Source: Clostridia bacterium (GTDB lineage Bacteria > Bacillota > Clostridia > TANB77 > CAG-508). From it: DNA of 64,000 nt. A program made the position numbers and the translations under genes. The DNA is taken from the NCBI GenBank assembly GCA_017515985.1, contig JAFWDV010000018.1, positions 39,091 through 103,090 on the forward strand, in the 5' to 3' direction. Below the pieces are notes generated by a model. It made no database searches. It was not told the origin of the DNA and saw only the letters and a program-made list of their open reading frames with translations. Below are positions 60,594 to 61,459 of the stretch, in pieces; position 1 is the first letter of the stretch; every line of letters begins with the position of its first letter.

Positions 60594-60600
60594 AAATATA

Positions 60601-60627
60601 AAATCGTACCAAAGGTACGATTTTTTT
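60601..60627 (+). terminator. Intrinsic terminator after tRNA-Leu
   Basis: AAATCGTACC-AAA-GGTACGATTTTTTT. Confidence 0.55.
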
Positions 60628-60695
60628 ATTTTGGATGAGATGGTAGGGACTCGAAAAGGCCGTAAAAGCCAACAGTCCAGTGGACTGTTGGCTAG

Positions 60696-60727
60696 GCCGC
60701 GGGTAGAGGCAACCACCATCGGCAGTA
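60696..60727 (+). repeat. Diverged duplicate of the tRNA-Leu 3' end (shares CCACCATCGGCA)
   Basis: GGCCGCGGGTAGAGGCAACCACCATCGGCA compared with the tRNA sequence GGCGTGTGGGTTCGAGTCCCACCATCGGCA. Confidence 0.45.
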
Positions 60728-60794
60728 GTAATTTGAATTAATAAATAAGCGGTAAACTGTTGTATATTGCATAAAGATGTGATAGAATGGTCAT

Positions 60795-60989
60795 TGTAAA
60801 TTTTTATTATCCAGCCGATGGCTGGTGGTTCAGTTGCAGGATGGATATCCAAAGGTCAGTGCAACTGATATATAGTAAGGGTTGGTGCGAGATTAATTAA
60901 ATAATTTTGAAGTCAAGCACCAACAAAGTAAACAGCAAGTGATGAAGGTCAGCTCACTTGCACGCCTAAAAGTTTAGGAGGAAAAAATT
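60795..60989 (+). promoter_or_regulatory. Long structured 5' leader (candidate cis-regulatory RNA) upstream of the ORF at 60990
   Basis: Four consecutive hairpins: CCAGCC-GAT-GGCTGG, TCAGTTGCA...TGCAACTGA, GTTGGTGC...GCACCAAC and CAAGTGA...TCACTTG. A fifth palindrome, CCTAAAAGTTTAGG, overlaps the RBS TAGGAGG. Confidence 0.35.
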
Positions 60990-61265
60990 ATGGCTATAAT
61001 TTCTATTGATTTAGACAAGGTTGCGCCAGAAATTCGGCGGGAGCTTGCACTAAAATCAGCAGATGTATCTGTATTGGATGAACTTACAAAATACATAGAC
61101 AAAGATTACATTGTTAAAAACAATTTACTCAAAAATCCAGCAACTCCGCCGTATATTCGCAAAAAGATAAATGCTAGTTATCGTCCGCTTATACTTAATA
61201 CAGAAGAATATGGTTCTCATCACGAATACATTGGTGTGGAAGAAGCAACCAGATACGATTATTGA
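60990..61265 (+). CDS. Hypothetical protein (91 aa)
   Basis: RBS TAGGAGG. No family recognised. Confidence 0.45.
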   Translation: MAIISIDLDKVAPEIRRELALKSADVSVLDELTKYIDKDYIVKNNLLKNPATPPYIRKKINASYRPLILNTEEYGSHHEYIGVEEATRYDY

Positions 61266-61459
61266 AAACATGCAGAAGGGGCAGTACTTTGTACTGTCTT
61301 TTCTGTATGTTTTAATATGGTGGGATATTAAAAAGCCGTGGTATAGTGGGAGAATGGTGGTTGGATAAGCTTTGAATAAATTGACATAATCTGGCAAAAA
61401 TGATATAATAATTCGTATGGAGAATTCTAAATAAAGAATTTTTTAGGAGGAATATTATT

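Follow-up and report, generated by a model that had tools for sequence, protein, structure and literature searches.

Directly behind the tRNA-Leu(CAA) gene in the window (the whole 64,000-nt stretch of DNA that was analysed) lies a foldback element of about 90 nt, in which a conserved hairpin of two helices is flanked by an inverted copy of the tRNA end on its 5' side and by a direct copy of the tRNA 3' end on its 3' side. We use the working name TLE for this tRNA-Leu-linked foldback element. The reading that we favour, with a little better than even confidence, is that the window holds two unrelated things that abut each other: the tRNA-linked TLE, a putative RNA (60634-60724), and a patch of accessory cargo genes (60725-63385). 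Repeats of tRNA 3' ends are routinely taken for the scars of att sites, and here that reading is wrong: the att-like repeat pointed to a structured element that had not been described before, is linked physically to a single tRNA isoacceptor and belongs to a clade of abundant uncultured gut Clostridia. If TLE is an RNA, this would be a rare bacterial tRNA gene with a cis-linked mimic and an antisense of its own 3' half. The cargo is ordinary flexible-genome content.

A foldback element attached to the tRNA-Leu(CAA) gene

The tRNA gene, its terminator and the parts of TLE are arranged as follows.

60507-60593, + strand: tRNA-Leu(CAA) gene (ARAGORN; Rfam tRNA model, 53.6 bits), with the discriminator A at 60590 and an encoded CCA at 60591-60593
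60600-60632, + strand: intrinsic terminator of the tRNA gene, with an 11-bp stem, the loop AAA and a T-run (terminator scan; fold); the hairpin part is 60600-60624 and the T-run follows it
60634-60724, + strand: TLE (fold; covariance model R1)
60639-60655, + strand: inverted copy of the 3' part of the tRNA, the 5' arm of TLE (inverted repeats I1 and I8)
60713-60724, + strand: second copy of the final 12 nt of the tRNA body, in direct orientation, the 3' tail of TLE (repeat search)
60639-60647 with 60713-60720, + strand: helix P1
60650-60652 (CUC) with 60706-60708 (GAG), + strand: helix P1b
60658-60661 (GGCC) with 60695-60698 (GGCC), + strand: helix P2
60667-60679 with 60681-60693, + strand: helix P3

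The original prediction described a duplicate of the last 12 nt of the tRNA after the terminator, and this duplicate is present: the 12-mer CCACCATCGGCA occurs at exactly two sites in the 64 kb (60579-60590 and 60713-60724), against a chance expectation of 0.09. The copy spans the 3' strand of the T-stem, the 3' strand of the acceptor and the discriminator A; in the window it lacks the CCA and a terminator, both of which are found in most relatives. Absent from that earlier description is the inverted copy, GATGGTAGGGACTCGAA, which equals the reverse complement of TTCGAGTCCCACCATC apart from one extra A, and which is antisense to the T-loop, the 3' strand of the T-stem and the start of the acceptor 3' strand. 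In other loci, the exact inverted matches to the tRNA are 5-13 nt long and mostly at least 9 nt, with the exception of two loci in which the match is broken only by a substitution.

Between the two arms sit the conserved internal loop and the P2/P3 hairpin, in which P3 forms a perfect 13-bp hairpin in the window (60667-60693). By itself, TLE folds with a predicted energy of -41.1 kcal/mol (z = -4.5); together with the tRNA terminator (60594-60730), the value is -54.1 kcal/mol (z = -6.3). When five representative TLEs from different lineages were folded separately, the same architecture was obtained each time. An anticodon arm is lacking, and in place of a T-loop TLE has its antisense sequence. 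It should be mentioned that two other identities were rejected for this sequence. A tRNA or tRNA pseudogene was set aside because there is no cloverleaf and neither ARAGORN nor the Rfam tRNA model calls a second gene, and a coding sequence because the ORFs are not conserved and the frame is broken by indels.

Besides the window, 29 loci of related gut Clostridia contain TLE. Wherever the tRNA can be located, the element lies directly 3' of tRNA-Leu(CAA) on the same strand, namely in the window, in five species-representative genomes and in 22 of the 24 metagenome loci. Covariance model R1 scores the window copy at 86.5 bits and 33 other copies, of which those from metagenomes were fished by an exact pattern and are thus of limited diversity, at 73-112 bits. 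In an alignment of 19 distinct sequences, 91.8% of the cells are paired (26-46% in slid controls) and six pairs show double compensatory changes, a covariation that leans largely on four divergent lineages (the window, L011, L038 and the L045 group); neither value was reached by any of 500 shuffles. GC-to-GU changes on the plus strand are seen in this alignment and also in the leader described below; they are an indirect hint that this strand is transcribed. When 51 other loci were searched with a second covariance model, built from 34 copies, no members of greater divergence came up, and no match to TLE was found in phage, plasmid and viral collections. In scans with Rfam 15, which covered the region at permissive thresholds, the whole window and four loci with typical TLEs, only the tRNA passed; the region was assigned to no known housekeeping RNA beyond the tRNA itself, and the matches below the gathering score look like chance (for example, miRNA models on the terminator palindrome). 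A literature search for a tRNA-linked element of this kind returned nothing relevant.

The nature of the foldback element

We read TLE as a candidate tRNA-derived structured RNA, judging from sequence comparison. One generic mark of a structured RNA, a conserved secondary structure backed by compensatory substitutions, is found in it, and in the reading that we favour it is old, vertically inherited and attached to the tRNA-Leu(CAA) gene. No promoter that would belong to TLE itself is convincing, and in most genomes a terminator stands between the tRNA and the element; the element would most likely be transcribed together with tRNA-Leu or through read-through from it. The transcript would then fold into a long hairpin with a tRNA-like 3' tail, and it may act on whatever recognises the 3' half of tRNA-Leu, in maturation, in quality control or as a decoy.

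The most serious alternative, which we consider unlikely, is that TLE acts or merely persists as DNA, either as a duplication-prone repeat or as a palindromic site for protein binding or recombination, without any function as RNA; gene conversion and unequal crossing-over would then maintain its likeness to the tRNA. Compensatory changes within a palindrome can be explained equally well by a DNA hairpin, a dimer-binding site or an RNA; P3 comes close to a perfect palindrome, and recombination typically produces a layout of inverted plus direct repeats. The tail matches the adjacent tRNA exactly, as gene conversion predicts, and in relatives the identity extends over 11 to more than 30 nt. That the tail tracks the local tRNA 3' end while the acceptor stems differ (CATCGGC, CAGTGGT, and CGGTGGT) also counts in favour of the RNA reading. 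In locus L066, however, the tail deviates from the tRNA and still pairs with its own 5' arm. It is also at odds with this alternative that the most conserved positions of TLE across lineages are the unpaired bases of the internal loop (GAAAAG, CGUUAAGG, and CCGCGGGUAGAG), whereas the neighbouring MBL protein is only about 60% identical among the lineages that share these loops.

The arrays of TLE can be weighed in the same manner. At some loci the element occurs in tandem with a unit of 137 nt, and the arrays (1, 2, 2.5 or 2.8 units) begin within the tRNA and have terminal units that break off at the P3 loop, a pattern that suits a duplication-prone repeat; under the RNA reading, too, the direct repeat shared with the tRNA would drive the growth and shrinkage of these arrays. 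For the truncated terminal unit of L045, the missing half was not found within 11.5 kb, and normal genes come next. In the L086 array, on the other hand, the terminators of the units differ while the core and tail are identical, which speaks for selection acting on these two parts and for the tRNA strand being transcribed. A same-strand intrinsic terminator, in the orientation of the tRNA, is kept after most TLE copies. No recombinase is associated with TLE in the loci examined, and neither an integrase nor a recombinase was found beside it in other genomes, where ordinary chromosomal genes follow. In most relatives the tail ends in ACCA. Both the window copy and the commonest metagenome variant lack the CCA, which therefore cannot be essential; the window copy has probably lost both its CCA and its terminator because the cargo patch starts exactly there.

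A more ambitious form of the RNA reading, which we regard as a long shot, is that TLE represents a new class of tRNA-derived regulatory RNA that toggles tRNA-Leu(CAA) precursors, or a decoy 3' half. In read-through transcripts, the antisense T-loop arm would capture the T-arm and 3' strand of the tRNA itself, the TLE tail would supply a substitute acceptor 3' strand with ACCA, and the precursors would switch between a mature-competent fold and a sequestered fold. For tRNA plus TLE, the sequestered fold has a predicted advantage of 8-23 kcal/mol over the fold with separate domains in three of four genomes, with hardly any difference in the fourth. If such a toggle or decoy existed, the supply of the UUG-decoding tRNA would be tuned, or the tRNA would be shielded from an enzyme that attacks its 3' half.

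Structured RNAs that mimic tRNAs include the plant mitochondrial t-elements, mascRNA, and the TLD of tmRNA. TLE resembles them in its T-stem and in an acceptor 3' strand with ACCA that ends a stable helix, and by analogy its site beside a tRNA gene suggests the use of tRNA-processing enzymes. It differs from them in that it has the antisense of a T-loop instead of a T-loop and in that most copies have no 5' acceptor strand. Another comparison is 3'ETS-leuZ of E. coli, an external transcribed spacer of tRNA-Leu that acts as a sponge for sRNAs; it is short and unstructured and pairs with sRNAs. TLE would likewise be a candidate RNA from the trailer of a tRNA-Leu transcript, but there is no sequence relation between the two, and TLE is a 90-nt foldback made of copies of the tRNA end. 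A tRNA-like domain is also present in bacterial Y RNA (PMC4201824); TLE is recognised neither by ARAGORN nor by the tRNA, tmRNA and Y RNA models of Rfam.

The cargo patch and the question of an island

Immediately after the tail of TLE, the window departs from its relatives. The patch as a whole and its second and third modules are given here, and the first module in the next section.

60725-63385, + strand: lineage-specific cargo insertion, from TLE to a conserved 297-aa gene (BLAST map against L011, L012 and L013; junctions)
61381-62743, + strand: consensus promoter (61381-61409, 12/12 match) and gene of a 427-aa orphan protein (61460-62743)
62763-63347, + strand: gene of a stand-alone P-loop kinase, 174 aa from 62763 (longest ORF from 62757; AAA_33, 1.1e-24)
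63315-63347, + strand: terminator of the kinase gene (terminator scan)

The cargo consists of three separately promoted modules, with neither an integrase nor a flanking repeat, and the conserved 297-aa gene starts at 63495. An empty tRNA-Leu site is found in a related genome: in L013, the tRNA-Leu gene is followed by 52 nt and then by the promoter of the conserved 297-aa gene. The same slot is filled with unrelated genes in L012 (2.2 kb) and L011 (7.5 kb). The empty and alternative sites show the variability of the slot, not the mechanism of insertion. The modules are also found apart elsewhere; L007 has no 427-aa gene, and other neighbours stand beside the module in L005/6, L008, and L010. 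The best explanation of these arrangements is that the cargo is a mosaic of accessory genes in a variable slot, probably assembled from separately promoted modules, and not an island borne by an integrase.

It had been proposed that this region is the edge of an integrated island, with the 12-nt repeat as its att-type site. The part of this proposal that stands is that the genes after the tRNA are not core genes, as the empty slot of L013 and the different contents of L011 and L012 demonstrate. The att-type site does not stand, because the duplicate belongs to a conserved element of about 90 nt that often has ordinary chromosomal genes next to it. According to the Islander definition, an island comprises an intact tDNA, a tyrosine integrase inside and, at its far end, a displaced fragment of the tDNA in direct orientation, and the T-stem region of tDNAs is a common target of integrases (PMC4383910). 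A classical island of this type, in which the 12-nt copy would be a displaced tRNA fragment (a remnant of attR or attL) and the cargo genes would be island leftovers, has several observations in its favour. A direct copy of the tRNA 3' end, starting in the T-stem region, lies past an intact gene; the boundary of the cargo coincides with the discriminator base of this second copy; the slot beside it is hypervariable, with an empty version in a relative; and in L012 unrelated cargo lies between the CCA of the tRNA and a terminator resembling that of the L013 tRNA-Leu gene, which is the expectation for integration at the 3' end. Nevertheless, the sole fragment lies 119 bp after the tRNA and ahead of the cargo, and these 119 bp contain no gene. 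No further fragment was found at up to two mismatches in the window and the next 10.5 kb, and no tyrosine integrase among the cargo genes (Pfam, PHROGs, NCBIfam). The search beyond the window likewise gave no integrase; the only mobility gene, an IS3-family transposase, lies beyond both the conserved 297-aa gene and the window. Unlike Islander fragments, moreover, the copy is part of a structured element with a conserved hairpin and an inverted copy, which integration does not yield, and this element is kept in many genomes with no mobile DNA adjacent to it. We therefore give the island little credence and regard it as already largely refuted for the present structure. A junction of GCA with GTAG, common to the window, L012, and L008, was set aside after alignment as probably coincidental.

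The 427-aa protein is an orphan with only six homologue clusters, and its relatives occur in other contexts, one of them beside a large serine recombinase. The kinase is similar to the kinase domain of bacterial Pnkp: it aligns to model positions 3-146 of TIGR04075 (bacter_Pnkp) with E = 4.7e-28 and 97.8 bits, compared with a whole-protein cutoff of 750, and the P-loop reads GVSGSGKS. It also matches phrog_505, a polynucleotide kinase in PHROGs, whereas in PADLOC it has only weak P-loop matches and no assignment to a defence system. It differs from Pnkp in standing alone, with neither phosphatase nor ligase domains and with no Hen1 partner.

The hairpin leader and its small gene

The first module of the cargo has the following features.

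60760-60788, + strand: promoter, with -35 TTGTAT, a 17-nt spacer and extended -10 TGaTAGAAT (read by eye)
60795-60989, + strand: 5' leader of about 195 nt (fold)
60811-60825, + strand: hairpin H1
60830-60868, + strand: hairpin H2
60881-60924, + strand: hairpin H3
60935-60961, + strand: hairpin H4
60965-60978, + strand: H5, the SD palindrome CCTAAAAGTTTAGG, overlapping the SD sequence AGGAGG at 60976-60981; the ATG is at 60990
60854-60859 and 60947-60952, + strand: GGUCAG loop motif, with a degenerate copy at 60911-60916
60990-61265, + strand: gene of a 91-aa protein (ORF; homologues)
61268-61310, + strand: 20-bp terminator of the small gene (terminator scan)

We explain this module best as an extended -10 promoter of the ordinary sigma-A type, followed by a 5' UTR of about 195 nt and a gene for a small LRV-like protein. 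The putative promoter of the original prediction is upheld as an extended -10 promoter; it fails a consensus scan, its -35 box matching at only 3 of 6 positions, and it is conserved in two homologous loci, L008 and L009 (TTGATT-17-TGTGATACAAT and TGTGATATAAT). The leader of about 190 nt with four hairpins and a palindrome overlapping the RBS is likewise present, with a minimum free energy of -61.8 kcal/mol (z = -4.0) that none of 200 shuffles equals. Across about 95 nt of the leader (H2-H3), the comparison with L008 gives no substitution and a single 1-nt indel, against roughly 17 substitutions predicted from the synonymous rate (synonymous divergence of the coding sequence, 0.18). The stems show one compensatory and two GC-to-GU changes on the sense strand and no disruptive change, but this covariation, taken from only three near-full-length sequences, is not significant (159 of 500 shuffles match it). 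A leader peptide was rejected because the sole ATG overlaps the -10 box and is lost in L008.

Three of the hairpins show RGGUCAG, in one case degenerate, at the 3' side of the loop, and GGTCAG has three sites in the 64 kb, two of which lie in these loops. From the sequence, the RGGUCAG hairpins are most likely candidate sites for a trans-acting factor that sets the stability or translation of the mRNA, and H1 may be a 5' stabiliser-like hairpin. The leader thus adds a small candidate protein-binding RNA motif on the gene of an orphan helical-repeat protein. Two matches to the H4 pattern in viral contigs are due to chance and lie within one unrelated, apparently coding phage sequence. We know of no factor that binds GGUCAG. 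One comparison is with CsrA, which binds GGA hairpins in 5' leaders, overlapping the SD sequence. As in leaders of that type, several hairpins here carry a common short loop motif, the last one adjoins the SD sequence, and the loop sequence is conserved beyond structural need; the motif, however, is GGUCAG and is not centred on GGA.

As for the claim of a riboregulated small gene, the leader is indeed conserved and structured, but there is at best weak support for control through sequestration of the RBS. The SD palindrome probably adds little: its hairpin has a predicted energy of only -2.5 kcal/mol in the window and covers 3 of the 6 SD bases, and the value is -0.1 or 0 kcal/mol in L008, L010 and L007, so that the term RBS-sequestering was an overstatement. 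For these reasons, it is quite improbable that the leader is a cis sensor, such as a riboswitch or an RNA thermometer, that gates translation of the 91-aa gene through this palindrome. The first three SD bases are predicted to be paired in the window (unpaired probability, 0.01-0.02), a palindrome persists at the SD position in every homologue despite changes in length, and the arms of H2 and H4 are mutually complementary (inverted repeat I15), which makes alternative folds conceivable. Yet there is no multi-helix junction or other architecture like a ligand pocket and no match in Rfam, and in L010, where the gene comes after another ORF, nothing but H4 and the SD region is left of the leader. 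That the hairpins themselves are the product, an RNA antitoxin or sponge in the style of type III toxin-antitoxin systems with the small protein as partner, is suggested by the loop motif that recurs in three hairpins ahead of a small orphan gene, in a variable stretch of DNA, and by conservation exceeding that of synonymous sites, but is very improbable, as no single unit is repeated in tandem (the hairpins are spaced by about 57 and 36 nt), the terminator scan places no terminator between leader and gene, the protein has a predicted helical-repeat fold and is not a nuclease by that model, and PADLOC gives no match.

The 91-aa ORF with its own terminator proved to be a real gene: its dN/dS of 0.19-0.59 indicates purifying selection. 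Its homologues form only four clusters among 5.8 billion proteins. PADLOC, PHROGs and NCBIfam have no matches to the 91-aa and 427-aa proteins; for the 91-aa protein, no Pfam model, LRV included, reaches the gathering score, and a structure search with its AlphaFold model gave nothing significant. The fold predicted by AlphaFold2 (pLDDT 67) has four short helices in residues 13-62 and a disordered C-terminal stretch of 30 residues, resembling about two LRV-type helical repeats (PF01816). The remote likeness to LRV also appears in a reverse profile search, in which the matches extend over multiple stretches, and the sequence of the 91-aa protein has the motif NPATPPYI; the matched proteins (E = 1.8e-9 to 7.5e-4) are mostly LRV or HEAT repeat proteins, and five of the six checked carry PF01816.

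The foldback element 3' of tRNA-Leu(CAA)

The 12-mer CCACCATCGGCA, which spans the 3' strands of the T-stem and acceptor of tRNA-Leu plus the discriminator, is present at exactly two places in the 64-kb window (60579-60590 and 60713-60724), against 0.09 copies expected by chance. The original prediction had correctly recorded this repeat and read it as an att-like scar, overlooking two features that lie between the copies, the last two listed here.

Features around tRNA-Leu(CAA), in window coordinates
60507-60593, tRNA-Leu(CAA), CCA encoded
60600-60632, terminator after tRNA-Leu(CAA), 11-bp stem and T-run
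60639-60655, inverted copy of the tRNA-Leu T-loop, T-stem, and acceptor start, GATGGTAGGGACTCGAA (inverted repeats I1 and I8)
60667-60693, perfect 13-bp hairpin between the inverted and direct copies

On its own, the element (60634-60724) forms a single long hairpin that the inverted and direct copies close (-41.1 kcal/mol, z = -4.5); with the tRNA terminator included, 60594-60730 reaches -54.1 kcal/mol (z = -6.3).

With the upstream MBL-fold protein as the query across species-representative genomes, we obtained 55 loci. The closest relatives by this protein (L011, L012, and L013; 66-75% protein identity) share with the window the gene order MBL gene, tRNA-Leu(CAA), variable DNA, 297-aa gene, and tRNA-Tyr/Met, and L011 carries the same foldback 3' of its tRNA, where the hairpin shows two compensatory changes. 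Four genomes at a greater distance (L028, L036, L038, and L045) were shown by BLAST and a covariance model to have the element 3' of tRNA-Leu(CAA) as well, and an exact-pattern scan of metagenomes yielded 24 additional loci, 22 of which have a same-strand tRNA-Leu(CAA) just 5' of the element. Because a second covariance model found no additional members in 51 other loci, the element is restricted to particular lineages. Rfam, named in the original prediction as a check, matched no known RNA family in this region other than the tRNA, and nothing resembling the element was found in the Rfam, phage, plasmid, or viral collections. In other genomes the genes 3' of the element are ordinary chromosomal genes, and no integrase or recombinase was found near it. 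The 12-nt duplicate is part of a conserved element that occurs without a nearby integrase, and an att scar is an unlikely reading of it.

Common anatomy of the element, from 5' to 3'
First part (5' end), GGGACUCGAA(AAG), antisense to the T-loop and T-stem 3' strand
Second part, P2, GGSC/GSCC, covarying
Third part, P3, 9-13-bp hairpin with an RGU loop
Fourth part, CCGCGGGUAGAG, invariant
Fifth part (3' end), duplicate of the T-stem and acceptor 3' strands and A of the adjacent tRNA; most also have CCA and a terminator

Across 19 distinct element sequences, 91.8% of cells are paired and six pairs have both sides changed; none of 500 shuffles matched these values, and slid controls pair at 26-46%. 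Independent folds of five representative sequences from different lineages gave the same architecture.

RNA or DNA repeat

For this element, the established points are its conservation, its structure, its linkage to tRNA-Leu(CAA), and the direction of the terminators. We infer that it is an RNA, which would be co-transcribed with the tRNA or produced by read-through from it, and which would form a hairpin carrying a tRNA-Leu-like 3' tail. The main rival explanation is a DNA-level repeat, the copies of which are kept alike through unequal crossing-over. The element does form arrays of 137-nt units that start inside the tRNA (copy numbers 1, 2, 2.5, and 2.8), and its tail equals the local tRNA over 11 to >30 nt, despite acceptor sequences varying between genomes. 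However, array units differ in their terminators but keep an unchanged core and tail, as in L086, the L066 tail has two mismatches to its tRNA and yet retains the pairing with its own 5' arm, and the unpaired loop bases are very strongly conserved, all of which makes the DNA-level repeat less likely. In nearest-neighbour folding of the tRNA plus element read-through transcript, an alternative fold, in which the distal tail pairs with the 5' acceptor strand of the tRNA and the inverted copy holds the T-arm and 3' strand of the tRNA itself, is favoured in three genomes by 8-23 kcal/mol, with a difference of about 0 in L038; because these energies ignore tRNA tertiary structure and folding kinetics, we regard this fold only as a lead. 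What is new at this locus is a tRNA-Leu-linked foldback element, among the tRNA-derived structured elements, with a putative function.

In three related genomes (L045, L075, and L086), the last array unit ends at, or ≤2 nt from, the P3 5'-arm tip, reading GCAAATGTCC in L045 and L075 and GCAAATGT|TC in L086, and the truncated unit runs into an unrelated sequence that all three share, TATTG...TTTTTATGTAAATTTATG; in L045, the missing half is absent within 11.5 kb. Where relatives lack the element, tRNA-Leu has a trailer of another kind (L012 11093-11230 and L008 1-115), which opens with a separate inverted tRNA-end copy (CACCAAAGGTGG...ACTCGAAC in L012). Their common ~55-nt block, GGTGGATTTACTTC.GCTTATTTTTTTGCTCTTTTTTCGGTGC, is also found 5' of the small-gene module in L008/L009.

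The cargo slot

The window cargo (60725-63385) begins directly 3' of the discriminator base of the element tail, where L011 has CCA and a terminator. From the tRNA end to the 297-aa gene's conserved promoter block (63386 onward), the interval is 2792 nt in the window versus 52 nt in L013; it is 2.2 kb in L012, with Abi-like and GNAT genes (both named from sequence only), and 7.5 kb in L011. The slot is a flexible-genome hotspot. A tDNA island, as defined in the literature, carries an integrase and has a displaced fragment at its distal end (PMC4383910). Continuing past the window, we found no additional tRNA-Leu fragment within 10.5 kb, and the only mobility gene around the cargo is an IS3 transposase, past the 297-aa gene, so that the cargo is not a tDNA island by this definition. 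The island edge originally proposed survives as a variable site. The observation behind the prediction is confirmed and extended, and its interpretation receives partial support. The novelty lies in the foldback element, and interest in the cargo and leader is modest.

Three modules make up the mosaic cargo. The small-gene module (leader and 91-aa gene) stands beside other neighbours in L005-L010, and in L007 the kinase directly follows the small gene, the 427-aa gene being absent. The 427-aa orphan has a promoter with a 12/12 consensus match and only six homologue clusters; in the three looked up (seven loci), no homologue lies beside the small gene or kinase, and one adjoins a large serine recombinase of 544 aa (L092-L094). 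The C-terminal third of this orphan (gene 61460-62743) is K/E-rich and coiled-coil-like in appearance. The kinase is stand-alone, resembles the Pnkp kinase domain, and has its own terminator. In L005 (614-889 and downstream), a 91-aa ORF and a gene that by eye resembles DUF4160 come after the small gene, possibly as a toxin-antitoxin-like pair, and these neighbours are another sign that the small gene has an accessory-DNA location.

The 297-aa gene (window 63495-64000 and 12506-13399 of L001, the window's own locus) stands beside tRNA-Leu in all close relatives. Its product matches no Pfam, NCBIfam, or PADLOC family, and has an acidic, low-complexity C-terminal part with a conserved end motif, KPSLWDRIKNMKL..GIRYLMKIKVVLELPEP. 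Its promoter region (window 63386-63470), kept in L011, L012, and L013, has repeated TGTAAT/TGTAAC boxes (TGTAATATAATTGTAATATAATTGAAAC...TGTAATTGTAG) 5' of a TTGAAA-18-TATAAT promoter and looks like an operator array. The IS3-family element (L001 13400-14790, past the window end), with HTH_Tnp_1 and rve ORFs and terminal inverted repeats, is flanked by the 297-aa gene and minus-strand tRNA-Tyr/tRNA-Met, after which htpG follows.

The 91-aa gene and its leader

The predicted 91-aa ORF is a real gene, as judged from dN/dS values of 0.19-0.59 and an observed indel that is in frame. With four clusters among 5.8 billion proteins, its product is very rare; it has a predicted fold of four helices and a disordered tail, and is distantly kin to LRV helical repeats. 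A structure search brought nothing further.

Its promoter, TTGTAT-17-TGaTAGAAT, is kept in L008 and L009. The hairpins (H1-H5) of the leader (60795-60989) are thermodynamically unusual (z = -4.0). In the window, the SD palindrome (H5) pairs 3/6 SD bases, at -2.5 kcal/mol; in L008, L010, and L007 it gives -0.1 or 0 kcal/mol. Compared with L008, ~95 nt over H2-H3 show no substitutions and one 1-nt indel, against a CDS synonymous divergence of 0.18, so that the constraint falls on sequence and not on structure alone. In the stems, H1 carries a compensatory pair and H3 and H4 one GC-to-GU change each, a pattern that does not reach statistical significance with only three near-full-length sequences. 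GGTCAG occurs three times in the entire window, twice in the loops of H2 and H4, and is also present in H3 of L008 and L006; L010 has a leader reduced to H4 and the SD region, 3' of another ORF. The 5' UTR may combine a 5' stabilising hairpin with three putative sites for a GGUCAG-recognising factor, and the proposed sequestration of the SD would be a minor contributor at most. The stems of H2 (60830-60868) and H4 (60935-60961) are mirror images, and their 3' arms are complementary at 9/10 positions (I15), which makes a long-range alternative pairing possible.
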